From Alphaproteobacteria bacterium (lineage in GTDB: Bacteria; Pseudomonadota; Alphaproteobacteria; SP197): a stretch of 64,000 nt of DNA. A model generated the notes under the pieces. That model saw only the letters and a program-made list of their open reading frames with translations, had not been told where the DNA came from and ran no database searches. Where the stretch lies: contig OZ220705.1 in NCBI GenBank assembly GCA_965116515.1, forward strand, positions 3,888,331 to 3,952,330, read 5' to 3'. The translations under genes were made by a program, and so were the position numbers. Position 1 is the first letter of the stretch. Each line of letters begins with the position of its first letter. Positions 1 to 42,166 of this stretch are shown here, in pieces.

Positions 1-444
1 TCCCCACTCGAAGGGAGCGAACCACTGCTGTCCCTCGTGCTGGGCGTCCTGGATGTTGTAGAGCGCCGGGACCACGTCCTTCCAGTTGGAAAGCAGCGAC
101 GTGTCGATGGGCTGGAGAATGCCCGCGTGCCGCCAGCGCGGCACATTGTTGCTGCAAGGATGCATGACATCCACCACGAACCCCGCCCTCACCTTGGTGA
201 AGGACTCCTCGGCGTCACCGAAGACCGGACAATCCGGCTCCACACCGTGTTTTTCGACATAGCTTGGCCAGATTTCCGGCACGTCATATCCGGACCACGT
301 GAAATAGATCGCCTGTTCCTCGGCCCGGGCCGCCGTCAACGGCATCACCGTCGACACCAGTCCGACCGCGGCCATCGCCTGGCTGAGCTCACGACGGCTC
401 AGTTCCCCGTTTTCAAGTCGCTTGATGGTATCCCTGATATCCAT
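1..444 (-). CDS. Periplasmic substrate-binding protein, PotD/PotF (polyamine) family, paralog A. Only the N-terminal ~148 codons are in the window; the gene continues past the window start.
   Basis: The reverse-strand translation reads MDIRDTIKRLENGELSRRELSQAMAAVGLVSTVMPLTAARAEEQAIYFTWSGYD... It is about 88% identical at protein level to the intact gene at 1674..2783. It has a Tat-like SRRELS signal. A GGAGGA RBS lies 8 nt before the ATG at 444, and the same arrangement occurs in paralog B. The ORF table misses it because it runs off the window edge. Confidence 0.7.
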   Translation of the reverse strand, partial: MDIRDTIKRLENGELSRRELSQAMAAVGLVSTVMPLTAARAEEQAIYFTWSGYDVPEIWPSYVEKHGVEPDCPVFGDAEESFTKVRAGFVVDVMHPCSNNVPRWRHAGILQPIDTSLLSNWKDVVPALYNIQDAQHEGQQWFAPFEWG

Positions 445-632
445 GGATGTGATCCTCCAGATTGTCACCAGCCCGGAGCCCGGTGGCCCTGGGTTTCATG
501 TTGTGTCCGCGTCACTCGGTTGCGGACCCGGTGAGCATCTTCCAATTTTTCTGACTGGTCAATCAAGTTTCAAGGTGACCCGGACAATGAAACCCATCGC
601 GACTGTTGGCATGAACAAGCGCAGAGACGGCC

Positions 633-850
633 ATGCGTTTCGCTGACGGTGTGCCCAGGACGGTTGATGTGATGGAAGAAGGTGTGTGGATCCCCCTCAA
701 GCGCGGTGTTCGCCTGGCGGCGCGCTACTGACTACCCGGGGATGCCGAACACAATCCGGTGCCCGCACTTCTCGAATGCCTCCCTATTGCGAGCGCGACA
801 CGGCGCGGCCGGGAGACGAGCCGAAACACGCGTGATTCGCCGGCCCGATG
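633..850 (+). pseudogene. Decayed 5' fragment of a CocE/NonD-family hydrolase gene. It is the duplicated copy of the start of the gene at 2983..5010.
   Basis: Nucleotide homology to 2972..3190. It encodes MRFADGVPRTVDVMEEGVWIPLKRGVRLAARY followed by an in-frame TGA (tac tga at 723..728) and a 1-nt deletion. After about 850 the homology ends and the TetR gene follows. Confidence 0.6.
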
Positions 851-898
851 GCCACCGGCTCGAACAGGATGTCGTGGCGTGAGTCCCGGGCCATCGCG

Positions 899-1585
899 TC
901 AGGCCGCACAGCCTTGCGCCACCGGCCGCGCGAAATGATGCGGAAAGACCGTGGCGAGATAGGCGAGGCAGTCCATTCTCGCGGTTTGCCGGCGGATATC
1001 GCGCGGATACATGAGAAGGTTGAGCCACAGGCCGTCGACCAGAGCCTCGAGGCTGCGGGCAATGCCTTCCGCGTCGGTGTTCTGGTATCCGCCGCTTGCC
1101 ACCAGTTCCCGGCACAGCCGGAAGATCTCGACGTATCTCTCGTCATCGAAGCGATGATGGATCTCGAGATAGGCGGGCCGGTACTTCGCCTGACCCCAGA
1201 AGGCGAACCACACCGCCAGTTTCTTTCTGGAGCAGATCCGGCGATCGAAGTCCGCTTCCAGGATGGCCTGCAGTTGTTTCGCCGGATCCGGACCCGCATT
1301 CAGCATGGCGTCACGCCACAGCGCATAGTGCTCCCGCGCCAGGTACCCCAGGGTCTCGACATAGAGGTCTTCCTTGGTGCGGAAGTGAAAGTTGACCACG
1401 CCATGCGAGAGCCTGGCGCCTCTCGTGACGGTTGCCAGGGTGGTGCCCGAAAAGCCCCGCCTGGCGATGGACTCGATGGTGGCGTCGATCAGCTGCTGGC
1501 GCCGTGCCTGGCGGGCGGCAAGGCGCCGGTCCGCCGTGCCGGTCGGTTGCGACCCGGTCGAAGCCGGGGATGCGACATCTGGCAT
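899..1585 (-). CDS. TetR/AcrR-family transcriptional regulator
   Basis: 228 aa. N-terminal HTH RQQLIDATIESIARRGFSGTTLATVTRGARLSHGVVNFHFRTKEDL. ATG start at 1585. Confidence 0.85.
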   Translation of the reverse strand: MPDVASPASTGSQPTGTADRRLAARQARRQQLIDATIESIARRGFSGTTLATVTRGARLSHGVVNFHFRTKEDLYVETLGYLAREHYALWRDAMLNAGPDPAKQLQAILEADFDRRICSRKKLAVWFAFWGQAKYRPAYLEIHHRFDDERYVEIFRLCRELVASGGYQNTDAEGIARSLEALVDGLWLNLLMYPRDIRRQTARMDCLAYLATVFPHHFARPVAQGCAA

Positions 1586-1673
1586 ATCGCTTCCACCACA
1601 TTGTGAAGGGAACGGGAACCGGGACCACGCGTGTCCCGGTTCCCTTCTGTCAGACGGAAGGTGCGGTGTCCGG

Positions 1674-2783
1674 TCAGAAACCGGCGATCATCTCACCCCA
1701 GTCACGGTTGATCATGGTCTCGATCTCTTCGACCTGCGCTCTCAGGAAGACACCCTTGTCCAGGATGTCGGCGGGGTTCCGGGAGAGTCCACGGGCCGTC
1801 AGATCGGCATCGCTGACGAGATCGAACGCCGCGGCGCTCGAGTGACCATAACCGTTTTCCACGATCGTGTGCACCCCGACCTCGGGAGCGAGCATCGCAT
1901 TGATGAGATCGTGGGCCTTGTCGTAGTGAGGCGCATTGCTGGTCAGCACCGTGCCACAGACCCAGGTGAGCGCGCCCTCCTTGACGTTGGCAAACTTCAC
2001 CGGAATGCCCTGCCTGGTGAGTTCCAGGGGCGAGCTGTTCCAGGTCATGGCCGCCACGAGTTCGCCGGAGGCGAGAGCCTGTTCCACCGTCGTCATGTCA
2101 CTCTGGCGGAACCGCAGCAGGTCACGCTGCTGCCTCAGGATATCGAGCACCTTCGCCAGGGCCTCATCGGTCAGGTTGTCGGTATCGACGCCGGCGTAGA
2201 TGGCGGCGCACCACCAGGCATCCTCGGCCGCATCGATGATCGAAAGCCTGCCGGCATAGCGCTCGTCCCACAGCAGCCCCCACGACTCCTCTTCGCCCTG
2301 CCAGTCGACGATGTCCGTGCGGTAGGTGATCGACGTCTGTCCCCACTCGACGGGAGCGAAATACTGCTCTCCCTCGTGCTGGGCATCCTGGATGTCGTAG
2401 AGCGCCGGAATCACGTCCTTCCAGTTGGAAAGCAGCGACGTGTCGATGGGCTGGAGAACGCCCGCGTGCCGCCAGCGGGGCACATTGTTGCTGCATGGAT
2501 GAATGACATCCACGACGAAGCCTGCTCTCACCTTGGTGAAGCCCTCCTCGGCGTCGCCATAGACCGGACAGTCCGGCTCCACGCCATGTTTCTCGACATA
2601 ACCTGGCCAGTAAATCGGATCGTCGTAACCGGCCCACGTGAAGTAGATCGCCTCTCCCTCGGCCCGGGCCGCCGTCAACGGCATCACCGTCGACACCAGT
2701 CCGACCGCGGCCATCGCCTGGCTGAGCTCACGACGGCTCAGCTCCCCGTTTTCAAGTCGCTTGATGGTATCCCTGATATCCAT
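1674..2783 (-). CDS. Periplasmic substrate-binding protein of an ABC transporter, PotD/PotF spermidine/putrescine-binding family (paralog B, intact). Tat-type signal.
   Basis: Listed ORF 1674..2807 is 377 aa. It has SRRELSQAMAAVGL twin-arginine-like n-region and the family-1 SBP fold. I prefer the ATG at 2783 as start because a GGAGGA RBS sits 8 nt upstream. The upstream GTG at 2807 is an alternative. Confidence 0.8.
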   Translation of the reverse strand: MDIRDTIKRLENGELSRRELSQAMAAVGLVSTVMPLTAARAEGEAIYFTWAGYDDPIYWPGYVEKHGVEPDCPVYGDAEEGFTKVRAGFVVDVIHPCSNNVPRWRHAGVLQPIDTSLLSNWKDVIPALYDIQDAQHEGEQYFAPVEWGQTSITYRTDIVDWQGEEESWGLLWDERYAGRLSIIDAAEDAWWCAAIYAGVDTDNLTDEALAKVLDILRQQRDLLRFRQSDMTTVEQALASGELVAAMTWNSSPLELTRQGIPVKFANVKEGALTWVCGTVLTSNAPHYDKAHDLINAMLAPEVGVHTIVENGYGHSSAAAFDLVSDADLTARGLSRNPADILDKGVFLRAQVEEIETMINRDWGEMIAGF

Positions 2784-2982
2784 GGATGTGATCCTCCAGT
2801 TTGTCACTCGCCCGGAGCCCGGTGGCCCCGGGTTTCATGTTGTGTCCGCGCCACCTGGTTGCGGACCTGGTGAGCATCACCCAGGTTTTCTGACTGGTCA
2901 ATCAAACTCGACACCGGCGCGACGACAAGGCGCTATGGCACGGATGCGTGTAGACTGTCATGGAGCAGCGGGAGTCACAGTC

Positions 2983-5010
2983 ATGCGCATCGTCGACGCT
3001 CTGCCCTCGAAGGTGGAGGTGAGGGAAGAGGGTGTGTGGATCCCTCTCAATCGCGGCGTTCGCCTGGCGGCGCGCATCTGGCTTCCCGACGATGCGGAAC
3101 ACAATCCGGTGCCGGCACTTCTCGAGTATCTCCCCTATCGCAAGCGCGACATGACGCGGCCAGGAGACGAGCCGAAACACGCTTGGTTCGCCGGCCACGG
3201 CTATGCCAGCCTGCGCGTCGACCTAGCCGGCGCCGGTGACAGTTTCGGCGTCATGCGCGACGAGTACACCAGGCAGGAACTCGAGGACGGCCGCGAGGTG
3301 ATCGCCTGGATCGCCAGGCAGTCCTGGTGCACCGGCAATGTGGGCATGTTCGGCATCTCCTGGGGTGGTTTCAACTCGCTTCAGGTGGCTGCCCTGCAGC
3401 CCCCGGAACTCAAGGCCGTGGTCACGTCGTGCTCCACCGACGACCGCTACAGCGACGACATGCACTACATGGGTGGCTGCCTGCTCAACGACAACCTCGA
3501 CTGGGGAACCACCTTCTTCGGCATCCTGCCCCTCCCCGGAGACCCGCTGGTCATGGGAGAGGACTGGCGAGCGAACTGGCAAGCGCGGCTGGAGGACGTC
3601 CCCTGCCCCGTCGAAACGTGGATGCGCCACCAGACGCGCGATTCCTACTGGCGTCACGGATCGGTGTGCGAGGACTATGACGCCATCCGCTGCCCGGTCT
3701 TCGCCGTCGGTGGCTGGCTCGACGGCTACTCCAATGCCGTCTTCCGCCTGCTCGCCGGACTCGAGGTACCGCGTCTCGGACTCATTGGCCCCCATGCCCA
3801 CCAGTGGGGCCATATGGAGACCGCGCCCGGCCCCCACTTCGGCTTTCTCCAGGAAATGCTGCGCTGGTGGGATCACTGGCTCAAGCACAAGGAGACGGGA
3901 ATCATGGAAGAGCCCATGCTGCGGGTCTTCCTGCAGGACGGGGTGCCGCCCCGTTCCTGGTATCGTGACTGTCCAGGTCACTGGATCGGCGAGGTCACGT
4001 GGCCCTCGCAGCGAATCCGCAACCGCCGCTACCACCTGAACCCGGACGGTCTCGGCAGGGAACCTGGCCGTCACGAACCGCGATCCGCCGTCACGCCCCA
4101 GACGCTGGGTCTTGCCGGCGGCGAATGGTGCCCTTACGGCACCGGCGGTGACGGGCCCGAGTTCCCTGGCGATCAGCGCCAGGACGACGGCGCTTCGATC
4201 ACCTTCGAGACGCCACCGCTTGACGCGGATATCGACATCCTCGGCCCGCCGGTGGCGGAACTTGAACTCGAGGTCGACAGGCCTGTCGCCTATCTCATCG
4301 CCCGCCTCAACGACGTCCGTCCCGATGGCGCGGTGTCACGGGCGTCCTTCGGTGTCCTCAACCTGACCCATCGCCACGGACACGATGAGCCCGAGGCCAT
4401 GCCCACGGGTAGCCCAACGACGGTGCAGTTGACGCTCAACGACTGCGCCTACCGCTTTCGCAAGGGGCACCGGATCCGCATGTCGCTCTCCACAACCTAC
4501 TGGCCGATGCTGTTTCCGGCTCCCGAATCGGTACTGCTGACGGTCCATACCGGGACCAGTGTGCTCGACCTTCCGGTGAGACCTGCCACGGGCGGGCCCC
4601 GGATCGGTGAATTCGAGGAACCAGAACAGGCACCGGCGATGGCAATGACGCAGATCGCCGCTCCGCAATCGCGCAACGTAACCACGATTGATCAGCAATC
4701 AGGGCGTCTCGAAGTGACGTCCGAGCGGGGCAGCGGCACCTACCGCATCGAAGACCATGGTCTCGAGTTCGCGAGGGACACCTTCGAACGCATGAGCATC
4801 ACTCCGGACGACCCGCTCTCCGCCGAGAGCGAGGTCGTCGTCACCACCCACATGAAACGCGGCGATTTCGAGGTGGACGTGCGTGCCCGCACCCATCTCA
4901 GGGCATCACGCGAACAGTTCCATCTCGCCGCCGATCTCGACGTCCGGGAGGGCCGTGACCGGATCCTGACGCGCCGCTGGTCCGTGCCCATCGACCGTCA
5001 TCTTGTGTGA
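2983..5010 (+). CDS. CocE/NonD-family hydrolase (X-Pro dipeptidyl-peptidase S15-like alpha/beta hydrolase)
   Basis: Motifs LEYLPYRKRD, GYASLRVDLAGAGDS and GMFGISWGGF (nucleophile elbow) are typical of CocE/NonD. The listed ORF starts at 2761. That N-terminal extension mirrors the promoter and 5' region of the divergent SBP gene, so I prefer the ATG at 2983 with a GGGAG RBS. Confidence 0.8.
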   Translation: MRIVDALPSKVEVREEGVWIPLNRGVRLAARIWLPDDAEHNPVPALLEYLPYRKRDMTRPGDEPKHAWFAGHGYASLRVDLAGAGDSFGVMRDEYTRQELEDGREVIAWIARQSWCTGNVGMFGISWGGFNSLQVAALQPPELKAVVTSCSTDDRYSDDMHYMGGCLLNDNLDWGTTFFGILPLPGDPLVMGEDWRANWQARLEDVPCPVETWMRHQTRDSYWRHGSVCEDYDAIRCPVFAVGGWLDGYSNAVFRLLAGLEVPRLGLIGPHAHQWGHMETAPGPHFGFLQEMLRWWDHWLKHKETGIMEEPMLRVFLQDGVPPRSWYRDCPGHWIGEVTWPSQRIRNRRYHLNPDGLGREPGRHEPRSAVTPQTLGLAGGEWCPYGTGGDGPEFPGDQRQDDGASITFETPPLDADIDILGPPVAELELEVDRPVAYLIARLNDVRPDGAVSRASFGVLNLTHRHGHDEPEAMPTGSPTTVQLTLNDCAYRFRKGHRIRMSLSTTYWPMLFPAPESVLLTVHTGTSVLDLPVRPATGGPRIGEFEEPEQAPAMAMTQIAAPQSRNVTTIDQQSGRLEVTSERGSGTYRIEDHGLEFARDTFERMSITPDDPLSAESEVVVTTHMKRGDFEVDVRARTHLRASREQFHLAADLDVREGRDRILTRRWSVPIDRHLV

Positions 5011-7319: not shown

Positions 7320-9260
7320 ATGCACTGCCGCCTTACCGCCATAATGGCTCACTTCCTCGCCCTTGCCATCCTGGTCTGCCCCTTCGACGTGGCAACGGGT
7401 GATACCGCCTACGGCAGCCACGACGCATGGAGCGGCCAGGTGGCCCAAGTCTACGGCACCCGCGTGGTTGATCTCGACGGCGCCGTTCATCGAATCGGGA
7501 CCGACGCCGGCGTCCGGCCGGTGGTCCTTCTGTTCATGAACGCCTTCTGTCCGGTATCCAACCGCTACGCTCCCGAACTCAATGATCTTGCCACATTGGC
7601 CGATGCGCTTGGCGCCTCCTTCTACGGTGTCATGTCGGGGCCTTATCTGACGGTGGGTGAAGCCAGGAACTTCGTGGATGACCACGGTTTCGACTTTCCC
7701 GTCATCTTCGATCCCTCCGGTGATCTCGCCCTGCGCCTCAACCCCGTCGTCACCCCGGAGGCCTTTGTCATCGATACCGGTGACGATGTCATCTACCGCG
7801 GCCGCATCGACGACCGTTTCGAAGCGATCGGCGTGCTGCGCAACCAGATCACCAGCCACGACCTCAAGGATGCCATCGCAATGGTGGGGGCGGATGACGA
7901 TCCGCTGCCCGTCTCCACGACGCCCGTCGGCTGCGTGTTCGAGGGCTGGGATGCGGACCGACTGCCGGAATCCGTGACCTACAACCGGGATATCGCTCCC
8001 CTGCTCACGGCCAACTGCACGGAGTGCCACAGGGACGGCAGTGTTGCCCCCTTCCCGCTCGATACCTTTGTCGATGCCAGACGCCGGGCCCGCATGCTGG
8101 CCTTCGTGACCCGCGAGCAGATCATGCCGCCCTGGCGTGCCGTCGAGGGATTCGGTGCCTTCCGCGACGAGCGACATCTTTCCGACCGCCAGATCGCTCT
8201 CCTCGCAGCATGGGCCGAAGCCGGTGCACCGCTGGGGGACGCAGCGGATGCGCTTCCGGAAACGGCGTGGCCGGACCCCGAGTGGCGCATCGGCGAACCG
8301 GATCTCATTCTCGAGATGGAGGAGCCCTTCGCCATCCCCGCGACTGGTCCCGATATCTATCGGTACTTCGTCATCCCGTTCGAGCTGTTTGAGGAGCATG
8401 GAATCAGGGCCATCGAATTCCAGCCCGGCGACGAGAGCGTCGTTCATCACGCCAACCTTTTCGTCGACTACTCAGGTGCTGCGCGCCGCGAGGACGCCAA
8501 GGACGACATACCGGGCTTTTCCGTCTTCGGGACGGGGAACTTCTTCGACTACAGCGGCGAGCAGGAAACCTGGGGCATCGGAGGCTGGACACCCGGCGTC
8601 GATCCCTATGTCCTGCCCGACAAGCATGCCATGTGGCTTCCGGCCGGCGCCGGCGACGTCGTGTTCGAGATCCACTACCACCTCAGTGGCAAGGCCACGG
8701 AGGACCGGAGCCGGATCGGCCTGAGATTCGCCGACGAGCCCGTTGCCCACTGGGTTGACGGGCTCGTGATCGGCACGCAACAGCTCGCGATCCCTCCGGA
8801 ATCGGACACCTACTGGCGCCATGTCCGGATGGAGGTTCCGGCGTCGATCAGGCTGATCGACATCTTGCCGCACATGCACTACCTGGGAGCCGAGGCCAGG
8901 GCGATCGCGACCCTCCCGGACGGTACGCAGATACCGCTGGTCCATGTCGAGGAATGGGATCTGCGGTGGCAGAACATCTACACCTTCCGCGAACCGATCC
9001 ACCTGCCCGCCGGCAGCACGATCGACGGCTGGATAAGATTCAACAACACCTCCCACAACCCCTACAACCCGACGCTGCCGCCCAAGACCGTGACGTGGGG
9101 CTGGGGTTCGGACGAGGAGATGATGGAGTTCTGGATCAGCTTCGTGCTCGACGACTGGCGTCAGCGTGACCGGGTGATCAATGCATCGTGGAATACCTGG
9201 TCCGAGGATCCCCGGTGGGACGGCCCGGTGCCGGATCTGGCCGACCTCAACCTGCCCTGA
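7320..9260 (+). CDS. Secreted tri-domain redox protein: thioredoxin-like (AhpC/TSA/TlpA-like) domain with CxxS motif, c-type haem-binding site, and a C-terminal copper type II ascorbate-dependent monooxygenase (PHM/DBH)-like domain.
   Basis: 646 aa. Signal peptide MAHFLALAILVCPFDVATG. Redoxin-like region FMNAFCPVSNRYAPEL (monothiol C-P-V-S). Haem motif NCTECHRDGSVAPFPLD (CxxCH). His-rich C-terminal blocks HHANLFVDY, HYHLSGK and HMHYLGAE, as in Cu-monooxygenase folds. GGAGAGG RBS before the ATG at 7320. Confidence 0.6.
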   Translation: MHCRLTAIMAHFLALAILVCPFDVATGDTAYGSHDAWSGQVAQVYGTRVVDLDGAVHRIGTDAGVRPVVLLFMNAFCPVSNRYAPELNDLATLADALGASFYGVMSGPYLTVGEARNFVDDHGFDFPVIFDPSGDLALRLNPVVTPEAFVIDTGDDVIYRGRIDDRFEAIGVLRNQITSHDLKDAIAMVGADDDPLPVSTTPVGCVFEGWDADRLPESVTYNRDIAPLLTANCTECHRDGSVAPFPLDTFVDARRRARMLAFVTREQIMPPWRAVEGFGAFRDERHLSDRQIALLAAWAEAGAPLGDAADALPETAWPDPEWRIGEPDLILEMEEPFAIPATGPDIYRYFVIPFELFEEHGIRAIEFQPGDESVVHHANLFVDYSGAARREDAKDDIPGFSVFGTGNFFDYSGEQETWGIGGWTPGVDPYVLPDKHAMWLPAGAGDVVFEIHYHLSGKATEDRSRIGLRFADEPVAHWVDGLVIGTQQLAIPPESDTYWRHVRMEVPASIRLIDILPHMHYLGAEARAIATLPDGTQIPLVHVEEWDLRWQNIYTFREPIHLPAGSTIDGWIRFNNTSHNPYNPTLPPKTVTWGWGSDEEMMEFWISFVLDDWRQRDRVINASWNTWSEDPRWDGPVPDLADLNLP

Positions 9261-10721: not shown

Positions 10722-10788
10722 CACGGATTCCCCCGATGCAGAGGGTAGTCTAGTCTGTCCGCTGGAACCGAGACCAGACCGACGAACC

Positions 10789-12300
10789 ATGACGGCACCT
10801 CCCAACATCCTCCTTGTCATGATGGATCAACTCGCGCCTCAGGTGCTGAAGCCCTACGGCGGCACGGTGTGCCGGACGCCCAATCTGGAGCGGTTGGCCG
10901 GCGAGGGCGTTGTGTTCGAGAACGCCTACTGCAATTACCCGATCTGTGCGCCGGCTCGCTTCAGCCTTATGTCAGGCCGCATGCCGAGCCGCATCGGAGC
11001 GTTCGACAACGCAACCGAATTTCCATCCGAGGTCCCGACCTTCGCACACTATCTTCGTGCAATGGGCTATCACACGTGCCTGTCCGGCAAGATGCACTTC
11101 GTCGGTGCGGACCAGCTTCACGGTTTCGAGGACCGGGTGACGACCGACGTCTATCCCGCCGACTTCTCGTGGACCAGCGACTGGTCGCTGGGTCCGACCT
11201 TCTGGGAACCGTGGTTCCACTCGGTGCGGATGGTGCGCGATGCGGGACCTTGGCGGCGCAGCGTCAACACGAGCTACGATGAGGAGGCAACCGTCGAGGC
11301 CTGCCGCTGGCTGCACGATCACGCCGACCGGGCCGATGGCCGGCCCTTCTTCCTGGCGGCGAGCTTCATCAGCCCGCACGACCCCTACCTGGCGCCTCCG
11401 TCTCACTGGGATCTCTACACGGACGACGGGATCGACGATCCCAGGGTCGGCGACATCCCGCTCGAGGAGCGTGACCCCCACAGTCGCAGATTGTACTACA
11501 CGATCGGTCGCCACATGGAGACGATCGGTCCTGCGGACGTCCGCCGGGCGCGACGCGCCTACTATGCCGTGATGAGCTGGCTCGATGACCGCATCGGGCG
11601 GATCCTGGAGACCCTCAAGGCCATCGACGCAGACGACCATACGATCGTCGTCCTGACAGCCGATCACGGAGACATGCTTGGCGAACGCGGCCTGTGGCTC
11701 AAGATGAGCTTCTTCGAGTGGTCGGTGCGCGTACCGCTGATCGTGCATGCGCCGACGCTCTATCGAGCGCGCCGGGTCAGGGAGAACGTGTCCCTGCTGG
11801 ATCTCTTTCCGACCTTCCTGGAATGGGCCGGCGACGGCGAACTGCCGGAACTGTTCGCGCCGATCGACGGCGCCAGCGTCGCCGGACTGGCCGCCGGACA
11901 CAGTGACGGCTGGCCTGATGTCGTCGGTAGCGAGTACTGCGGTGAGGGCGCGTCCTCACCGGTGCTCATGATTCGCCGCGGACGCTGGAAGTACATCCAT
12001 TGCGAGGATGATCCGCCCCTGCTCTTCGACATCGAGCAGGATCCTGACGAACTCGTCAACCTCGCCGGGACACCGGAGGTCGGCGGCGTCGAGACCGATC
12101 TTGCCGGCGAGGTCTGTCGCTGGTGGGATACCGCGGCCCTGAAGGATCGCGTGATCGAGAGTCAGAGGCGCAGGAAGTTCCTTCACGCCGCCCTGTCGGT
12201 TGGCCGTCGCACACCCTGGGACTGGCAACCGGTGCGTGATGCCTCGCGTGAGTATGTGCGTGGCGACAGTGACGTGGATGGCATCTATGACAGGACCTGA
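10789..12300 (+). CDS. betC: Choline-sulfatase
   Basis: Sulfatase signature CAPARFSLMSGR (C-x-P-x-R). N-terminus MTAPPNILLVMMDQL. About 500 aa with the typical BetC length and C-terminal region. I chose the ATG at 10789. The listed ORF 10630.. overlaps the divergent gene. Confidence 0.8.
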   Translation: MTAPPNILLVMMDQLAPQVLKPYGGTVCRTPNLERLAGEGVVFENAYCNYPICAPARFSLMSGRMPSRIGAFDNATEFPSEVPTFAHYLRAMGYHTCLSGKMHFVGADQLHGFEDRVTTDVYPADFSWTSDWSLGPTFWEPWFHSVRMVRDAGPWRRSVNTSYDEEATVEACRWLHDHADRADGRPFFLAASFISPHDPYLAPPSHWDLYTDDGIDDPRVGDIPLEERDPHSRRLYYTIGRHMETIGPADVRRARRAYYAVMSWLDDRIGRILETLKAIDADDHTIVVLTADHGDMLGERGLWLKMSFFEWSVRVPLIVHAPTLYRARRVRENVSLLDLFPTFLEWAGDGELPELFAPIDGASVAGLAAGHSDGWPDVVGSEYCGEGASSPVLMIRRGRWKYIHCEDDPPLLFDIEQDPDELVNLAGTPEVGGVETDLAGEVCRWWDTAALKDRVIESQRRRKFLHAALSVGRRTPWDWQPVRDASREYVRGDSDVDGIYDRT

Positions 12301-12537
12301 AACCGCCGGATGACAAACGGCATGGTCGCCACCTCGGCCGCACCCGTGACCACGCCGGTGGCCGTTCCATCAACATGACCGCACGACGCACGACTTATTG
12401 CCGGCATCGACCTGCTCCCTACGTGGATCAGGAATTGCCACCGGCGCCCGACCTTCAGGCCGGGTGACGTCTGGCCCGACAATCTGCGCATAGGGTAGGC
12501 TGAATCGACGTCTCCGAACGGAACCAGGGGGGAGCCC

Positions 12538-13500
12538 GTGAAGGCAGAGACCGCAACGAACGAATGGCACCGAAGTCCGCGGCGGGTGCATGTGCACTTC
12601 GATGGCATCAGGGTCGCGGACTCCGAGCGCACCATGCTGCTCCGTCAGCACGGCTTCCTGCCGGTCTACTACTTTCCCGAAGACGACGTGCGCACCGACC
12701 TTCTGGTGGCCACCGGCTACACGACCACGTCGCCCTACAAGGGCACGGCGAACTACTGGCATCTCGACACCGGATCACGTGTCGCGCGCTTCGCCGTGTG
12801 GCGATATCTGCGGCCGAAGGACGGATCGCCCGACACCAGCGGTCACTACGGTTTCGACTGGCACAGCATGGACGCCTGGTGGGAGGAAGACGAGCGCATC
12901 CTCGTGCACGCGCGCGATCCGTTCCTGAGGGTGGACGCGGTGCGCAGCGCCCGATCCGTCAGGGTCGAGATCGCCGGGTGTACCGTTGCGGAAACGCGCC
13001 GTCCCGTGCTGTTGTTCGAGACCGGACTGGTGACGCGCTACTATGTCCCCGAAGAGGACGTGCAATCCGGATTGTTCGAGCCGAGTGCCACCTACACGCT
13101 CTGTCCCTACAAGGGTCGTGCGCGTTATCATCATGTACGGATCGATGGCACTCGCTACAGCGATGTGGCCTGGCAGTATGTCCGCCCCCTGCCCGCGGTG
13201 GCGGCGATCGCCGGACACCTTGCGTTCTGGAACGAGCGCGCCGACACGACGATCTTCGTCGACGGAAAACACCTTCCGGACAGAGGCGTGCGCTCAGCCG
13301 GTGAGGGCAGCGAAATGCTGCAGCCGTGGCGTGAGTTCTGGGGGGAACCCCCGCCAGCCGCAATGAAGAGCCGAGGCATCGGCACACAGATCGAGGCCGC
13401 GCGTCCCAACGGCCGGGCCGAGGGCCCGCCCGACGATGTCATGGACCTCGATGTCGAACGCGCCGGAGGAGGCCCGGACGACTGGCCGGAACAGGGGTGA
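12538..13500 (+). CDS. Tandem DUF427-domain protein
   Basis: Two internal repeats. Each contains VRVxF/VRVEI...PVYYFP/RYYVPEEDV...CPYKGxAxY...VAW-YxxP, the DUF427 hallmarks. GTG start at 12538 with a GGGGGAG RBS. Confidence 0.6.
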   Translation: MKAETATNEWHRSPRRVHVHFDGIRVADSERTMLLRQHGFLPVYYFPEDDVRTDLLVATGYTTTSPYKGTANYWHLDTGSRVARFAVWRYLRPKDGSPDTSGHYGFDWHSMDAWWEEDERILVHARDPFLRVDAVRSARSVRVEIAGCTVAETRRPVLLFETGLVTRYYVPEEDVQSGLFEPSATYTLCPYKGRARYHHVRIDGTRYSDVAWQYVRPLPAVAAIAGHLAFWNERADTTIFVDGKHLPDRGVRSAGEGSEMLQPWREFWGEPPPAAMKSRGIGTQIEAARPNGRAEGPPDDVMDLDVERAGGGPDDWPEQG

Positions 13501-19889: not shown

Positions 19890-20340
19890 ACGGTGCGACA
19901 GGATGCCCGGGCCAGGGTTCCCGACCGAACAACGGGCTCCTCGCCATGGATTCTTGAGGGCCGGCCGGCCTTGGCGCCTTCCGGACTTTCGCCTGCGGCC
20001 AACCGGCACACGTGCCGCAAAGGGGTCACGGAAAAGCCGAACCGGCGTCGGCCGGGCATCCGCATCCACTCTGTCAGCAGGTGGCGACATGGCCGCCACG
20101 CCCAAAGCTGCTGCCTGTCCAACTCGACGAGTAGCCAGCCGGCACCGGAACTTCGAGTCGAACGGTGCCCATGGCGTCCGGTTGTGCGCCGGAACGCTTC
20201 CAGCGTCCTGGTACAGTCCGTGCCGATCACCCGGGCGGGGCTATCGAGGACCCTGGTCGACGCCGAGAGACGGGCCCCATTTGCGGATCTGAATGCGGCC
20301 GGTAGAGTCCCCGGAGGCATGGCGACCAAGGACTCCGACC

Positions 20341-21045
20341 ATGACCCTGACGGAGAACACATGGTGGACTCACTGGCGCGAGGTGGATGGCACGATCGTT
20401 CTCCATGTCGATCTGGCGCCGGATGCCGGGCGCGAGGCGCGGGCGGTCTCGTTGCTCGACGACAGCGAGAAAGCGCGCGGCCTCCGCTTCCGGTCCGTTT
20501 GTGCCCGCCGCGAGTTCGTCCTTTGCCGCGCGGCGCTTCGCGTCAGCCTCGCCGAGCGCCTGGGCTGCTCTGGTGAACGGCTTTCGTTCGGCTTCCTGGA
20601 ACACGGCAAGCCCTACGCGAGGCTCGCCGACCGGTCCGTGGACATCGCGTTCAACGTCAGTCACAGCGGCGGGCACGGCCTGATCGCGATCACCGACAAG
20701 GCGAGTGTCGGTGTCGACGTGGAGGAACGTGCGCCTCAGCGCGATCTCGACGGCATCGGCAGCCTGGTGTACGGCCCCAGGGAGCAGCGGTTCCTGGGGA
20801 ACGCTTCGGATCGGGAGAAAGTGCAGATCTTCTATCGCCTGTGGAGCATGAAGGAAGCGTTGATCAAGGCACTCGGCACCGGGTTTTCCCTGAACCCGTC
20901 GGGATTCGAGGTTCCCGGACCGATGCTGCGGGGAGAACGGTCCGGCATCTTCCGCTTCCCGCACCTGCCGTCACAGGCGTGGCGGGTCCTGGACCTGGGG
21001 GAGTCCCGATTCGCCGCCGCGCTTGCCTACCGGCTGTCGTCATGA
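20341..21045 (+). CDS. 4'-phosphopantetheinyl transferase, Sfp/EntD type
   Basis: Motifs GKPY, FNVSHSGGHGLIAI, VGVDVEE and WSMKEALIKALGTG. ATG at 20341 with an AAGGA RBS. The listed ORF starts at 20293. Confidence 0.85.
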   Translation: MTLTENTWWTHWREVDGTIVLHVDLAPDAGREARAVSLLDDSEKARGLRFRSVCARREFVLCRAALRVSLAERLGCSGERLSFGFLEHGKPYARLADRSVDIAFNVSHSGGHGLIAITDKASVGVDVEERAPQRDLDGIGSLVYGPREQRFLGNASDREKVQIFYRLWSMKEALIKALGTGFSLNPSGFEVPGPMLRGERSGIFRFPHLPSQAWRVLDLGESRFAAALAYRLSS

Positions 21046-23040: not shown

Positions 23041-26000
23041 ATGACGGATCCGGACAGGCCGGAAGGCCGCAAACAGGGAGTGTCCGCCGGCAGCGAGGCC
23101 ATGGCGATTGTAGGCATGGCCTGCCGTTTCCCCGGCGCAGACGACCTCTTCGCCTTCTGGCGCATGCTGGAAGAGGGGAAAAGCGGCGTGATCGAAGGGG
23201 TTCCCGGGTCCGGCGTTGGTCGCATCGGTGAACTGTTCGCTGAAGGCGAGGGGCGGGCCCCGGCCTGCAGGTTCGGCGCCTACCTCGACGAACTCGACCG
23301 GTTCGACGCCGCCTTCTTTCGCATCTCGCCGGTGGAAGCGCAGTTTCTCGACCCCCAGCAGCGAATGATGCTGGAAACCTGCTGGCGCGCACTGGAGGAT
23401 GCCGGCATCGACCCCGACAACCTGAAGGGCAGCCGCACCGGCGTCTTTGCGGGGATCAGCAACAACGAGTATCGCGGGCTGATCCTGGAAAGAACCCGGC
23501 CTGACGAACCCGCCGCGAGCCTTTACTCCGTCACCGGCACCTCGTTCAACACCGCGATCGGCCGGGTCTCTTTCGCTCTCGGCCTGGAGGGCCCGGCGCT
23601 CGCGCTCGATACGGCCTGCTCGTCCTCCCTGGTCGCGATACATCAGGCGGTGACCGCCCTGCAGCGAGACGAGGCGGACGTGGCACTGGCGGGCGGTGTG
23701 CATGCGATCCTCTCCGGTCGTCTGCTGGAGATGCGCGCCAATGCCGGCATGCTTTCGCCGGACGGCCGGTGCGCCACCTTCGATGCCGCTGCCAACGGCT
23801 ACGTGCGCGGTGAGGGCTGCGGGATCGTGGTGATCAAGCGTCTCTCCGATGCCGAGGCCGACGGCGACCGCATATGGGCGGTGATCCGGGGCACCGCGCT
23901 GAACCAGGATGGCGCCAGCCCGGGTCTGACCGTGCCAAGCGGTCCGGCCCAGGAAAAAGTCATGGAGTCCGCGCTGAAACAGGCTGGCCTCTCGCCTTCG
24001 GATGTGGACTACGTGGAGGCGCACGGGACAGGCACCGAGGTTGGCGACCCCATTGAAGCGCAGGCAACCGGCACGGCTTATGGCCACGGACGCGATCCCG
24101 AACGCCCGCTGCTGATCGGCTCGGTCAAGACCAATATCGGCCACCTTGAAGCGGCAGCCGGAGTCGCTGGGGTGATCAAGACGGTGCTGGCCATGAGGCG
24201 GGGCGTCATCCCCAGGCACCTCCATTTCCGGGATCCCAGTCCGGAAATCGACTGGGACCGTCTGCCCCTTCAGGTGACGGCAGAGCCCACCGAATGGCCA
24301 CGGTCTGCCGGTGCGCCGCCGCGCGCGGGGGTGAGCGGTTTCGGCTGGTCGGGGACCAACGCCCATGTGGTGCTGGAAGGGTATGGTGACCGGCACGACA
24401 CCGTCGCCGAAGATCCAGGGCGCTGGACCGACGGGCCGCCGGGGTGCATCGCCATCATTCAACCGTCCTCAATCGAAGGAGCGGCGCCGGTCGCGAAGAC
24501 GCTGGCCTCGCGCGGGTCGCGAATCCTGCCTCTCTCGGGCAGATCGAACGAAGCCCTGAGGGAACTCGCGGGATCGTACCTGTCCTGGCTCGATGAAGGC
24601 ACCCGCGCCGACAGTGCGGAAGCGCTCGCCGACATGGCCTGGACGGCCGCCGTCGGACGCAGTCATTTCGAGTGCCGGTCGGCAGTGGTGTTCCATGACG
24701 CCGGATCCCTGCGCGCCGCCCTGCAAGACCTCCGGGAAGCAGGCGGCACGCGGGTGCCGGCGGCGGCGAGGAAGGTGGCGTTCGCCTATACCGGACAGGC
24801 CAGCCAATGGCCTGGCATGGGCGAAGCGCTCTACGCAAGCGAGCCGGCGGTGCGCGCCGTGCTCGACCGCTGCGACGCGATCCTCGCCAAGGAACGGGAT
24901 GCGTCACTGCTGGACGTGATGTTCGGCCGACCGGGAGCCGCGGGTGACCTCGACGAGCCCCGGTGGAAACAGCCGGCGATCTATGCCCTTGAATGCGCGC
25001 TCACCGCGCTGTGGGACACTCTCGGCGTACGGCCGAATGTCGTGGTCGGACACAGTCTTGGCGAGATCGCGGCGGCGCAGGCTGCGGGCGTGTTCAGTCT
25101 GGAAGAAGGACTGCGCTTCGCCGCAGCCCGGGGCGGGCTGATCGGGGCGCTTCCCGGCGACGGCGCGATGGCCGCGGTCTTTGCGCCCGCTCCGCGTGTC
25201 GCCGAGGCACTGGACGAACACAATGCGGCTTCGGACGGCATTGGCCTTTGTATCGCGGTGGACAACGGCGCCCAGCAGGTGATCAGCGGTCCGGCGGTGG
25301 AGATCGACGCGATCCTGGGACGCCTGGAAGGTCAGGACATCCGGGCCGTGAAACTGCGCAGGAGCCCGGCCTACCACAGCGCGATGATCGACCCGGCCCT
25401 GGACGACCTGGAAGGCGCATTGGCCGGAACCGCGTTCGCTCCGCCTTCGATCCCGTTCGTCAGCAATCTGACCGGCCGCGCGCTGGAGGCCGGTGTCGCG
25501 CCGGACGCGTCCTATTGGCGGCGTCAGGTGCGCGAGCCGGTGGCCTTCCGTGCGTGCATCGAGACCCTGGCGGAATTTGGCGTGGACGCGATCATCGAGA
25601 TCGGTCCCCATGCCGTGTTGGGCCCGATGGCAACGATGGCATGGCCGGAATCCGCAGCCGAACCTCCTGTCGTGCTCTCAAGCCTGCGGCGGCCGGGCAA
25701 GGATGAGGAGCCGCCGCCGGCGGGTTCGGGCGGCGGCTTCATGGAGGCGGTTGCCGGCGCCTACGATGCGGGCCTGGCGCTCGACTTTCCGGGACTGTTC
25801 ACGGGCGAAACGCGCTGCCGCATCGCCCTGCCCGGCTATGCCTTCCAGCGAGAACGCTACTGGGTCGAGGGAACCAGGCGGCGGTCTCAGACCGGCCACC
25901 CCTTGCTGGGAACACGCCACGAGTCCGCGAGCGGCGAGGTCGCCTTCGACACCGAGGTCTTTCCCTCGGACCCGACGTGGCTCAACGACCATCGGGTGTT

Positions 26001-29000
26001 CGGCCGTCTGATTGCGCCCGGCGCGCTCTACGGCGCGATGGCCGCCACCAGCATCCGCGGGGATGGCGGAGGGGAAGCTGCGGTCGAGGACTTTCAGATA
26101 CAGAACGCCCTGGTCTTTCCCGAAGACGACGCGGAGGAGAGATCGAACGACAGGGGCCGGCGGATGCAGGTCCTGCTGGACGACGACGACCACGGTTCCC
26201 GCCGGATCCGCATTCTCAGCAGGGGCGACAGCGAGGACACGTGGACACTGCATGCAGAGGGCCGCATCCCGACAGACTCCTCAGGTTCGACGCGCCCACC
26301 ATCGCGCCTCGATGTCGAGGGAATGAAGGCCGGCCTCTTGCCGGTCGACCTCGCCGCTTACTACCGCTCCAAGGCGGCTGTCGGAATCGATCTCGGTCCC
26401 TCCTTCCGCACGCTGCAGGCGCTGTGGGCCCACGCCGGTGAAGCGGTCGCGGACGTGGTGCTCCCCGTCGAGCGAGAAGGTGATGCGCTCGACGTGCATC
26501 CGCTCGTGCTCGACGGCTGCTTCCAGGCCGTCGGCGCTGCGCGCAACGCCGGCAGCGACGGCGAGGACGTCACCTACCTCCCCTTCGCCTGGGAGCGACT
26601 GTGGCTGGCGGGCAGTCTGCCGGGTCGGCTGGTTTGTCATGTGAAGATGAGGGAAATTCCGCCGGGTCCGCAAGCGGATGCCGATGACTATGAGCCCGAG
26701 GTTCGGGCCGCCGACTTGTGGCTCTATGATCCGGACGGCGTACTGGTCGGCGAACTGGCCGGCTTTACGGTCAAACGCGCGACACGGGCAGCGTTGCTGG
26801 CTTCCGTGGAAGGAATTGACGATCTCATCTACGAGATCGTCTGGCGGGACAGCTCACTTGCACCCGGCATGTTGCCTGCGGATTTCCTGACCGGGCCGCG
26901 GGACATTGCGGCCGACACCCAACTCTTCAGCAACTACCTGGCGAACGAGGATGTGGGTGCGCAAAGCCGGGCCGCGCTGCTTGCGGATCTGGAGCAGTTG
27001 GCGCGCGCCTACGCCCTCCAGACTCTGGACAGGATCGGCTGGCAACGCATCGCCGGCGAACGCGTGGAGTCCGAGGCGTTGCGGGAGCATCTGGAGGTCG
27101 GCGACCACCACCGGCGACTGTTCCGCCGCATGCTGGACATGCTGGCTCAGGACGGGGTTCTGGAGGACCAGGGCGACAGCTTCGTCGTCAACGTTTCCTC
27201 CGGGGCACCTCTCCCGGGGGGACTGGCGAGCGACCCGGATGCCGTGGCTGGCGACATGGCGGCGCGGTACGCGCATGGCACAACCGAAATCGGCCTGTTT
27301 CGACGAAGCGCCGATGCCCTGGCCGATGTCCTGCAGGGACGCATGGATCCGTTGACATTGCTGTTCAGCAGCGGCGAACCGACAGCGGCCGACCTCTATC
27401 TGAAGGCGCCGGTGGCCCGCGCCGCGAACCGGATGCTGGCGGACGCTACGGCGGCATTGCTGCGAGCCCTGCCGGAAGGGCGCACGCTGCGTATACTGGA
27501 GATCGGGGCCGGCACCGGCTCGGCCACCGCGGCCATACTCCCGGAGTTTCCGGAAGGGCGCTACGAGTACACCTATACGGACATCTCGGCCGGCTTCTTC
27601 GCGGAGGCGGAATCGCGCTTCGGCGGTGCCGAGGCATCGATCAACTACCGGGTGCTGGATATCGAGAAGGACCCGGTGGAACAGGACTTCGACCGGCACG
27701 GCTACGACCTCGTGATCGCTTCCAATGTGCTGCACGCGACACGATATCTGAACGAGACGCTGGCGCACTGCCTCAAGGTCCTCGCCCCGTCGGGCCAGCT
27801 TGTCGCGCTGGAGAACCTGCGTGGCCAGGGATGGCTCGACCTGACCTTCGGGCAACTCGACGGCTGGTGGCGATTTGCCGACACGTATCGCCCACACCAT
27901 GCCCTCGCCACTCCGGCGGTGTGGCGCCAGGCATTGGGTGACGCCGGCTTCGGGGACATCGCGATCCTTGGCTTCGACGAGTCCGACCCGAACGCCAATC
28001 CGGACCGGGGGGTGATCCTTGCCCGGGGTCCGGCGGACGTGAGCGAGACGCCGGGTATCTGGGTCCTGGCCGCCGACCGCGGTGGCGTGGCGGCGGATCT
28101 CGCGGCGGATCTCGCGGCACACAACCAGACGGTGGTGCTTGCCGGACCGCAAGCGCCCCCCGGCGAACCAACGGAGGCCGCGGGCGTCGTCAAGACTCTC
28201 GTGGAGGCGGAGCGACGCGAGTCGTGGACATCCCTGCTCGAAGACCTGCCGGGCGACCTTGCAGGTGTCGTTCATCTTGCCGGGCTGGACGGCCATGGCG
28301 CGCAGGCGACGACCGCGGAACTGGCCGAGGACACCCGCCATGCGGCGGCGAGCGCGCTGGCACTGACCCAGGCGCTGGTGGACAGCGATCTGGCCCTGTC
28401 GAAGGGTCTCTGGTTCCTGACACGGGGCGCGCAGATCCTGGAGCGCGAGCGTGGCGGACAACTGACCGGCGCCGCTCTGTGGGGCTTCGGCAAGGTGGCG
28501 GCACGGGAAGCGCCCCAGCTGCAACCGAGAATGCTGGATCTCGATCCCGACGATGCGGTCCTGCCATCCGGCCTGGCGGACGAGTTCCTCCATCCCGATG
28601 CGGAAACACACATCGCCCGTCGATTCGGCCGCCGCCTTGGCGCGCGGCTGGTCCGCGCAGAAGCGGTCGCGGACCGGCTGATCCTGCCCGAGGAGCCCGG
28701 TTGGGAACTGAAGCCCGATGCCGGCGGCTCGCTCGACTCGATCGGGATCATGCAGGTGCCGCCGCTCAGGCTCGAACCCGGAGAGGTCCGCGCAGCGGTC
28801 GACGCCTTCGGGCTCAATTTCCGCGACGTTTTCATCGCCATCGGCGTCGTCGACGACTTCATGGGCGGGGAATTCTGCGGCCGCGTCCTCGAAGTCGGAG
28901 AGGGTGTTACCGGCGTCTCCGTGGGAGACCGCGTCGTCGGACTGACGTTCCGCAACTACGGCTCCGAGACCGTGACTCTGGAAAAGATGATCGTGCCCGC

Positions 29001-34199: not shown

Positions 34200-34707
34200 G
34201 ACGCTTGTGTCCGCTTTCCTCTCTATGCGGTGCCTGCAACGGGACACGGCATGACTTCAATGGTCGCCCACGTCACCGCAACGTTCACGGAATATTCGGA
34301 CGAATTGGTTTCCCCTGAATACAGGAACCTGGGGACGGTTGTCCGCTGTGTGGTGGTTCCCCGCGTGTCCGAAATCCGGGGAAACTTCCTTTCATCGGTC
34401 TTGAGATCAATGTTTCATAGTTTGCGTCCTGATACCACACACGAGACAGCCATCCCTTCCAGCCGTCCCGTGCTTGCCGGCCTCGGCGGAGACATCGCAC
34501 TCCACCGACGGGCCAAGCCAGGCAGCGAACGAACGACCATGATCGGTGGCGCATGGACCGGGCCAGGCTGCGGCCCCTCTGCATCTTCGGCAAACGCAGC
34601 GGGTTCGTTGTCGGGCAGACAACGTCACCGACACCGTGGTTGCCCTGGACCCGGGTATGGTAGAACGATCTCCTGGCACTCCGGGGGTCCGGGAGAGGGA
34701 TGACACC

Positions 34708-39642: not shown

Positions 39643-39644
39643 GG

Positions 39645-40907: not shown

Positions 40908-40989
40908 GTCCTGGTGTCTCCGCACCGATGATAGAAAAGACAGGGAAAACCGGGGCTGTGACGCCCCGGCTTTCCCTGGAACTGGCTCG

Positions 40990-42063: not shown

Positions 42064-42166
42064 GATTGTCGTCTCCCTTCAAAGGACGTTGTTCATGTCG
42101 TGCAAGGTCGCTAGGACCGTGCTTCATGTGCCGCGTCACGCGGCCTTGAGGACACCTCCCGTCATG

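Follow-up and report, generated by a model that had tools for sequence, protein, structure and literature searches.

The window analysed here is a stretch of 64,000 nucleotides (nt) from contig OZ220705.1 of an Alphaproteobacteria bacterium (assembly GCA_965116515.1), and its left end carries two paralogous genes for PotD/PotF-like substrate-binding proteins (SBPs) together with a TetR-family repressor gene and a divergently oriented CocE/NonD hydrolase gene (Table 1). Reading from the left edge, the 5' part of the first SBP gene (SBP1) is followed by a spacer and by two decayed stubs, one from the hydrolase gene and one from a histamine-dehydrogenase-like gene, and then by the complete TetR2 and SBP2 genes, a second spacer and the intact hydrolase gene. 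The latter scores 220 bits against TIGR00976 (cut-off 66.3), and its codons 1-71 alone (2983-3196) lie inside the duplicated unit described below.

The repeated unit and its join point

A repeat search and a gapped local alignment run on the window sequence paired positions 1-845 with 2340-3196, with 736 of 871 columns identical (84.5% including gaps), a similarity far beyond chance. The initial annotation had described a self-alignment of about 850 bp at this place with 85-90% identity; it was confirmed, with position and gene content as described, and the identity ranges locally from 52 to 99%. The paired segments are the 5' part of the SBP gene on the minus strand (1-444 versus 2340-2783), the spacer (445-632 versus 2784-2982) and the first 71 hydrolase codons (633-845 versus 2983-3196). 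Identity amounts to 92-95% over the first 150 nt, 78-86% at 150-300 and 95-99% at 300-450, is lowest (52-62%) immediately upstream of the hydrolase start and reaches 81-88% within the hydrolase fragment. The longest perfect block comprises 85 bp (318-402 = 2657-2741) and covers SBP codons ~15-43, that is, the signal peptide, while the rest of the repeat is ~85-89% identical.

The two copies are spaced ~2,345 bp apart (2339-2351 in the window), which corresponds to TetR, SBP, spacer and hydrolase start together, and since this spacing equals one whole unit a tandem repeat cut by the window edge was suspected. An exact-protein look-up of TetR2 led to a second genome, L001, which is 99.5% identical to the window (62 differences in 11,580 bp). 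The genes of L001 run in the order hydrolase (minus strand), SBP-TetR, a stub of 32 amino acids (aa), and SBP-TetR followed by an Oxidored_FMN/Pyr_redox gene (700 aa) and a Lactamase_B gene. Positions 8390-10749 of L001 align to 10741-13088 with 89.4% identity over 2,375 columns, the ends overlapping by 9 bp, and the full SBP1 gene (369 aa) is found at 11143-12252, its remainder being the part left of the window edge. Each unit contains the 71 5' codons of the hydrolase gene, the divergent spacer, the whole SBP gene, the whole TetR gene and the oxidoreductase gene up to codon ~26, and both L001 and the spacing in the window place the two copies directly head to tail without unique DNA between them. 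By this alignment the duplicated segment is not the ~850 bp originally assumed but a complete unit of ~2,350 bp, the left copy of which is cut by the window edge. We consider it likely that an SBP-TetR unit heading an amine-breakdown operon was duplicated head to tail, completely, long ago and in a single event.

The initial annotation had instead proposed an ~850-bp duplication and, after it, a deletion or replacement that placed a TetR gene beside the left copy. The window alone accords with this history, as it shows just 845 bp of the left copy abutting TetR2, yet the similarity in L001 runs over the full 2,350 bp including a second TetR gene and the dehydrogenase start, which makes it extremely improbable. 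No deletion or replacement is required, because the place where TetR stands beside the hydrolase relic is the tandem join point and TetR2 is the start of the next unit.

Related genomes were found via SBP homologues (L002, L003-L006) and by a scan of species-representative genomes (L010-L023), the latter all being metagenome-assembled genomes of uncultured Alphaproteobacteria; L002 is the L017 genome and L007 the L021 genome. One unit in the same context was present in L002, L003-L006, L010 and L012-L019, with L010 and L012-L019 representing nine related species. In the single-copy genomes L002, L010 and L012-L019, dehydrogenase codon ~26 and hydrolase codon ~71 lie ~2.35 kb apart, and the junction unites both. 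It falls in a 9-bp G-rich microhomology, TCGCCGGCC, that stands at 837-845 and at the parental hydrolase site 3188-3196 (consensus GGCCGG(C/T)GA). Single-copy L012 has GGCCGGCGA in the hydrolase gene and GGCCGGTGA in the oxidoreductase (dehydrogenase) gene, 8 of 9 bases being shared. The motif is thus present once at the junction and at both parental sites in L012, which we read as the signature of a microhomology-mediated illegitimate join. The gene lists of L001 and the window contained no insertion sequence (IS) element, integrase or long repeat in the unit or at its borders. At the join, the 5' stub of the oxidoreductase gene (915-846, minus strand) continues into the antisense of the hydrolase stub.

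The ancestral single-copy locus would have consisted of a divergent CocE/NonD hydrolase gene facing SBP-TetR, a histamine-dehydrogenase-like amine dehydrogenase gene and a metallo-beta-lactamase (MBL)-fold hydrolase gene. One illegitimate recombination would have joined dehydrogenase codon ~26 to hydrolase codon ~71 via the 9-bp microhomology, doubling everything between the two sites to give two intact SBP-TetR pairs and leaving at the join a back-to-back pair of truncated gene stubs that would have decayed afterwards.

The state of the two stubs can be read in detail. The hydrolase relic keeps its ATG and contains two TGA codons, an in-frame one at 729-731 and another at 833-835, with a 1-bp deletion lying between them near 782, in agreement with the earlier description of a start decayed by an in-frame TGA and an indel; a five-way spacer alignment revealed that its Shine-Dalgarno sequence is deleted in copy A. 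The first ATG of the dehydrogenase relic is now AAG, and this relic overlaps the 3' end of TetR2, just as the intact oxidoreductase start overlaps the TetR stop. Seven of the 62 differences between the window and L001 fall within 718-870 (153 bp; Poisson P = 2e-5), a crowding of strain-level differences that is expected under neutral decay. With their stops, indels, lost Shine-Dalgarno sequence and crowded strain differences the relics behave as neutral DNA, and the 32-aa "gene" called there should be annotated as a pseudogene fragment.

The tandem including the hydrolase relic was also present in L011, a different species-level genome, with the join at the identical nucleotide. Derived changes (GAGTAT to GAATGC) are common to the L011 relic and the window lineage, whereas the lesion in L011 is a 5-bp deletion in place of the W33 stop. 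The junction sequence was also recovered, in a search of metagenome contigs, from MKWU01000027.1 (96% identity to L001 over the join), so that the comparison with related genomes yielded the same join in four assemblies and a single copy in nine related species. A falsely duplicated or mis-joined repeat is a general risk in metagenome assemblies, and nothing further speaks for one here, whereas the relics decay in lineage-specific ways, the copies are 10-15% diverged with many indels and the junction recurs in four assemblies that are independent of one another and represent at least two species-level lineages; because of this divergence and recurrence we put the likelihood of an assembly artefact at next to nil. 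A 2.35-kb repeat at 89% identity is, on the other side, a hazard for the short-read assembly and binning of such genomes.

Table 1. Position and basis of the features at the left end of the window (window coordinates)
Feature	Position	Strand	Basis or remark
Unit A	~1.5 kb left of the window plus 1..845		L001
SBP1 (A-type, PotD/PotF-like), first 148 codons	1..444	-	Aligns to 2340-2783
Divergent spacer, copy A	445..632		SBP-proximal half conserved, hydrolase-proximal half decayed; identity profile, five-way alignment
Candidate TetR operator, copy A, TGACTGGTCAATCA	552..565		Five-way alignment; binding predicted
CocE/NonD hydrolase relic, first 71 codons (pseudogene fragment)	633..845	+	Alignment to 2983-3196
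Tandem join, 9-bp G-rich microhomology TCGCCGGCC (GGCCGGCGA on the opposite strand)	837..845		
Unit B, complete repeat (~2,351 bp)	846..3196		L001 self-alignment
Histamine-dehydrogenase-like gene relic, first ~26 codons	846..915	-	Aligned to the intact start, L001 13010
TetR2 (copy B), BetI-like TetR-family repressor, 228 aa	899..1585	-	Pfam TetR_N + TetR_C_6
SBP2 (B-type, copy B), PotD/PotF-family, 369 aa	1674..2783	-	Pfam SBP_bac_8/6/1
Divergent spacer, copy B, functional hydrolase/SBP promoter region	2784..2982		Candidate operator 2891-2904
Intact CocE/NonD hydrolase, 675 aa	2983..5010	+	Pfam Peptidase_S15 + PepX_C; TIGR00976

Divergence and homogenisation of the two copies

Both SBP-TetR pairs are intact and under purifying selection. 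SBP1 and SBP2 are 92.4% identical at the amino acid level, of equal length and stop-free, with a ratio of non-synonymous to synonymous divergence (dN/dS, omega) of 0.16, while TetR1 and TetR2 are 90.8% identical, likewise of equal length, with an omega of 0.37. The earlier suggestion that a relatively old duplication created a second binding-protein gene is supported, and both PotD/PotF-like genes are intact. That suggestion covered only part of the event, as the second TetR gene in L001 means that the regulator was doubled as well.

Gene conversion was read from site-pattern counts and distance trees. Sites were counted as paralog-specific if the A copies of L001 and L011 agreed and differed from their agreeing B copies (A1 = A11, differing from B1 = B11) and as genome-specific if the two copies within each genome agreed and differed between genomes (A1 = B1, differing from A11 = B11). 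The SBP gene contained 41 paralog-specific and 11 genome-specific sites and the TetR gene 5 and 24, respectively (Fisher p = 9e-8 for this contrast), and in the promoter-proximal spacer with the signal-peptide codons (L001 8700-8930) the counts were 1 and 10. In the SBP tree, sequences grouped by type, with 100% bootstrap support for the B clade of L001_B, L011_B, L010 and L012, 73% for the A group of L001_A, L011_A and L017, and 0% for pairing within genomes. The TetR tree grouped by genome, with 90% support for L011_A with L011_B and 0-2% for grouping by paralog. Site patterns and trees together point to regional gene conversion, which appears to have homogenised the TetR and leader/signal-peptide segments within genomes while the mature SBP stayed paralog-specific. 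Codon ~43 marks the end of the conversion-prone leader block, immediately ahead of the first cluster of type-specific residues. For the 85-bp identical block, these data indicate a gene-conversion tract rather than a special RNA element, and the block had no match in Rfam. Concerted evolution of duplicated genes by gene conversion is familiar from tufA/tufB in Salmonella, and the TetR and leader segments resemble that pair in grouping by genome; unlike tufA/tufB, conversion at this locus is regional inside a single 2.35-kb repeat and spares the mature SBP.

The SBPs carry a twin-arginine-like signal sequence (SRRELSQ...ARA|E, as read from the sequence), and SBP2 matches Pfam SBP_bac_8 (E = 4e-17) and the PDB entries 7xjm (E = 2e-27), 1a99 (PotF; E = 1e-23) and 1pot (E = 1e-21). 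In a HMMER alignment to PotF, residues 50-53 (W-A/S-G-Y) fall on the W37-S38-D39-Y40 loop and W248, W274 and Y312 on PotF W244, F276 and Y314, while G52 and C276 align with the acidic D39 and D278; in PotF these residues, including the two acidic ones, have ligand-contact roles. The SBPs thus resemble PotD and PotF (1pot, 1a99, 7xjm) in their SBP_bac_8 fold and in a conserved, aligned aromatic pocket (W50, Y53, W248, W274 and Y312), and differ from them in an identity of ~25-30%, in lacking adjoining permease/ATPase genes and in scores far under the NCBIfam equivalog cut-offs (PotD 91 bits versus 582, PotF 81 bits versus 636). Since the acidic PotF positions are replaced and the scores lie so far below the cut-offs, putrescine or spermidine should not be assumed as the ligand, which is probably a different one.

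Type-specific replacements between the SBPs were located at residues 51, 55, 57, 58, 75, 94 and 310, the first four of which flank residues 50-53 aligned to the PotF loop, while 310 is two residues from Y312. The A-type residues (V55, E57, I58, F75, M94 and F310) are the state in L017-L019, including the outgroups L018 and L019 with mainly A-type states, and the B-type residues (D55, I57, Y58, Y75, I94 and N310) are common to all of L010-L016. The branch between the types, determined from lineage-consensus sequences, carries 31 non-synonymous and 40 synonymous changes (omega ~0.23). Its ratio of replacement to silent changes is about twice that within types (odds ratio 1.9, p = 0.013), and the replacement rate between the SBP types is therefore elevated. 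Two further comparisons were discarded. A strict fixed-difference test (8 non-synonymous to 0 synonymous, versus 131 to 327 within types; p = 5e-5) is biased against synonymous changes because synonymous changes on the stem are overwritten in at least one of the 12 sequences, and a reading in which the duplication was recent and SBP2 evolved six times as fast, drawn from polarisation with L002 as single outgroup (22 versus 4 replacements, p = 5e-4), was dropped because L002/L017 is itself A-type and the B residues are common to seven other genomes.

TetR2 matches PF00440 (E = 1.4e-11) and PF13977 (E = 1.2e-24). It resembles BetI-type repressors in the TetR_N and TetR_C_6 domains, a near-cut-off score and a conserved 14-bp palindrome in the divergent spacer, and differs from BetI in staying below the equivalog cut-offs (TIGR03384, 113.6 versus 201.3; NF001978, 111.7 versus 118), in the position of the gene inside the operon that it presumably controls and in the presence of two converting copies. 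TetR1 and TetR2 differ at one site in the helix-turn-helix region, most differences being found in the N-terminal tail and at residues 163-170. The sole spacer block conserved out to relatives with 83% SBP identity is TCTGACTG(G/A)TCA(A/G)TCAA, which in these relatives contains the perfect palindrome TGACTGATCAGTCA; a palindrome-like block is present in all five aligned spacers, and this conserved block is likely the TetR operator. The candidate operator is identical in both window copies (552-565 and 2891-2904), decay in the copy A spacer is confined to the hydrolase-proximal part, and SBP-proximal spacer and operator are 95-100% identical between copies, leaving the possibly different regulation that had been proposed for the second SBP without support at the cis level. 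Given the near-identical DNA-reading heads and the identical candidate operators, cross-regulation is the simplest expectation, and the two TetRs would probably act on both promoters.

On the SBP strand the candidate operator overlaps a weak -35-like TTGACC with GATGCT 17 nt further on, as judged by eye; this pair fell under the threshold of the promoter scan, which gave one marginal sigma-70-like site, in copy A alone. A terminator scan found no terminator-like site on the transcribed strand between TetR2 and SBP1, and transcription of unit B may continue into unit A. The SBP 5' leader also contains a conserved GC-rich hairpin, GGAGCCCGGTGGCCC(C/T)GGGTTTC (475-497 and 2814-2836), which is present in L002, absent from the 83% relatives and was flagged as terminator-like on the plus strand. 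The Rfam scan of the 64-kb window returned no family at gathering score and no riboswitch evidence in the conserved SBP leader. The sole weak match within 1-3300, to the Chloroflexus-1 small RNA at 1553-1711 (plus strand), from the TetR2 start to the SBP2 stop, was rejected as noise (23 bits versus a gathering score of 181; E = 0.005 for a 3.3-kb search).

Single-copy relatives and the origin of the tandem

Within genomes, the synonymous divergence (dS) between the A and B copies of the SBP gene is 0.27 in L001 and 0.30 in L011. Between these genomes, the A copies differ by a dS of 0.32 and a dN of 0.008 (omega ~0.025) and the B copies by a dS of 0.17 and a dN of 0.022, while flanking single-copy genes have a dS of 0.37 between L001 and L011 and 0.34 between L001 and L017. 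The A-copy dS close to that of the flanks, together with the shared join, argues for a duplication event that is both single and old. Its age would roughly match that of the deepest split within the set of ten related species-level genomes, and the tandem has persisted in at least two lineages, with copy A under very strong purifying selection throughout.

In a flank tree built from 5.5 kb with four single-copy genes, L001 and L011 fell into separate clades, and both have close relatives that are single-copy. These relatives are best explained by repeat collapse through homologous recombination, which would have been accompanied by some inter-lineage recombination. Collapse is mechanistically cheap because tracts of several hundred bp are 95-100% identical, and mosaic sequences among the single-copy genomes fit it, as the SBP genes of L015 and L016 are B-rich in the 5' half and A-rich in the 3' half, and L017 has a B-like spacer followed by an A-type SBP, the polarity expected of collapse.

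Several observations weigh against the interpretation as a complete, ancient, single-origin duplication with later collapse. The left ~1.5 kb of unit A lies outside the window and is taken from the 99.5%-identical L001. Purely vertical descent would imply about five separate losses on the flank tree, and dS between A and B is not above dS between the A copies, contrary to strict vertical descent. L001_B is closer to the B-type SBPs of the other clade (dS 0.17) than the flanks are (0.37), which requires inter-lineage recombination in any case, and such recombination has certainly occurred. L014 combines an A-like spacer with a B-like SBP, a polarity opposite to that of collapse, and a test of the two L011 copies against their close single-copy relatives L012 and L010 for collapse does not separate the scenarios, as these are B-like up to the 3' end of TetR and become A-like just where copy B is a decaying stub. 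Finally, the promoter assignment is weak, with its single marginal site, and the omega between SBP types is just ~0.23, a value by which positive selection is not demonstrated.

Part of these observations could be accommodated by allele capture, a scenario that we regard as unlikely. According to it, the two units were already ~10% diverged before they were joined, A-type DNA of a related species having been integrated beside the resident B-type DNA. In a mechanism that we judge to be equally unlikely, one end was integrated by homologous recombination and the other by the 9-bp microhomology, after which homologous recombination carried the tandem from lineage to lineage, and most single-copy relatives were never duplicated. 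The ~five independent losses would thereby be avoided, the low dS between L001_B and the B-types of the other clade (clade II) relative to the flanks would be accounted for, and it fits in addition that the B residues are common to the single-copy genomes L010 and L012-L016 (and to L011) while A-type is the state of L017, L018 and L019, and that each duplicated genome has one native-looking and one foreign-looking SBP copy when compared with the flank tree. However, the TetR gene, dehydrogenase start and hydrolase relic of unit A are without a donor-like signature: the nearest sequences to L011_A TetR are those of L011_B and L012 rather than L017, and the relics are no closer to L017. The divergence between relic and functional sequence (0.15-0.16) is not above that expected from the divergence between relics (0.19), so that no divergence prior to joining is seen, and with a dS of 0.32 between the A copies the tandem, if transferred at all, would have moved long ago.

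With duplication followed by collapse as the preferred origin, the question arises why two SBPs were kept. We propose, tentatively and as a possibility only, that the B-type was born from the duplication through a burst of replacements around the ligand loop that gave it a new amine specificity, that most lineages kept B alone after collapse, and that two lineages keep both because selection blocks conversion of the mature SBP and allows homogenisation of repressor and leader. In the preferred reading itself, both SBPs would be exported amine receptors feeding the same catabolic operon; B-type SBP2 would have gained replacements around the ligand loop while the A-type kept the ancestral sequence under very strong constraint, and the pair may therefore widen or partition the ligand range. 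A redundant duplicate kept for dosage or by drift, with functionally neutral amino acid differences, would be in line with the inter-type omega well under 1, with promoter-proximal regions and operators that are identical and with the sufficiency of a single copy in most related species. We nevertheless find redundancy rather doubtful, since both copies of a loss-prone tandem (an 85-bp perfect block and blocks of several hundred bp at 95-99%) were kept over a dS of ~0.3 in two lineages, the A copy has its omega of ~0.025, conversion homogenised TetR and leader and not the mature SBP (p = 9e-8), and replacements affect the family-conserved positions E57, M94 and F310.

Apart from the tandem, individual relatives exhibited local rearrangements. 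In L003, an IS1595-family element (Zn_ribbon_IS1595 and DDE_Tnp_IS1595) lies between the amine dehydrogenase and the MBL-fold gene and a reverse-transcriptase (RVT_1) gene lies upstream (12159-13133 and 1599-3059 are concerned), both being absent from the near-identical L004 and L005. A TetR match restricted to residues 20-116 and a dehydrogenase match starting at residue 22 make a deletion across the TetR 3' end probable in L013 (6705-7098), and in L015 (6526-6813) the hydrolase match is in two pieces split at residue 96, a likely frameshift.

Operon context and significance

The product of the gene following TetR1 is homologous over its full length to histamine dehydrogenase (3k30; residues 7-677, E = 1.7e-209) and trimethylamine dehydrogenase (1djn, E = 4.6e-159). 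It resembles these enzymes (3k30, 6de6, 1djn) as a putative amine dehydrogenase, and its gene is not duplicated itself except for the first ~26 codons. The adjacency of SBP and dehydrogenase is kept in relatives down to 70% SBP identity, and neighbouring genes encode an agmatinase-family hydrolase, a methyltransferase, flavin adenine dinucleotide (FAD) amine oxidases and a choline-sulfatase-like protein. Dehydrogenase homology, conserved adjacency and amine-related neighbours together suggest that the unit heads an amine-catabolic operon. A literature search gave no direct precedent for an operon of histamine dehydrogenase, SBP and TetR. In L007 (3560-6112 and 8001-11457), a 72%-identical SBP and an amine dehydrogenase adjoin N,N-dimethylformamidase genes (DMF_alpha, DMFA2_C) with no TetR between, a context that hints at small methylated amines being handled by the SBP/dehydrogenase pair in some lineages.

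No permease or ATPase genes were found next to the SBP genes in the window or in any relative examined. A complete PotABCD-type ATP-binding cassette (ABC) importer is encoded elsewhere in the window (38815-43288, minus strand), comprising two permeases, an SBP_bac_8 protein of its own and an ATPase that carries a TOBE domain. The permease-less SBP1 and SBP2 may use this importer, the nearest PotABCD-like set, as their membrane partner, permease sharing being pure inference. Several SBPs can serve one permease, as for DppA1-A5 with DppBCDF in Pseudomonas aeruginosa (PMC4206461). SBP1 and SBP2 resemble DppA1-A5 as paralogous SBPs that are without permease genes of their own and plausibly share a transporter; unlike DppA1-A5, they have a repressor and a dehydrogenase, not a transporter, as linked genes.

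Further genes in the window include a single open reading frame for a 3,403-aa type I polyketide synthase (23041-33252, plus strand; KS-AT-DH-cMT-ER-KR-ACP and a second KS/AT stretch), which is preceded by a 4'-phosphopantetheinyl transferase gene (20293-21045) and followed by genes for an alpha/beta hydrolase (33204-34247) and a class-III aminotransferase (34546-36042). An unusually long protein of 646 aa (7320-9260, plus strand) that is conserved in L001 and L002 has an AhpC/TSA-redoxin domain at residues ~54-164 as its sole domain, the other ~480 residues being without a Pfam match.

Tandem duplications are the commonest bacterial rearrangement and are usually lost within generations, and old ones with a readable join point are uncommon. 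In enterobacterial tandem duplications and amplifications such as those of lac in E. coli, the homology at the join point measures 4-15 bp (PMC1428787). The locus described here resembles lac-type amplifications in its direct head-to-tail arrangement, in a join within short G-rich homology (9 bp, 8 of 9 matching) without a mobile element and in the truncation of genes at each border. In contrast to the laboratory cases, which are young, identical in sequence, 7-32 kb in size and quickly lost without selection, it measures 2.35 kb, is ~10% diverged with a dS of ~0.3, is common to several species-level lineages and retains recognisable stubs.

The locus is an ordinary bacterial gene duplication and, as such, a clean and well-preserved natural example of well-known processes. 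It displays a whole life history, from the microhomology join through stub decay, retention of both pairs and regional conversion to single-copy relatives, which fit differential loss. Of most interest is the possibility that the duplication gave rise to the B-type SBP as a neofunctionalised receptor; if true, the locus would document innovation, amplification and divergence in nature, its join point still being readable. For these uncultured Alphaproteobacteria, SBP1 and SBP2 represent a concrete and testable amine-binding pair, ~28 residues apart with several of these beside the ligand loop, that is linked to a histamine-dehydrogenase-like catabolic operon.

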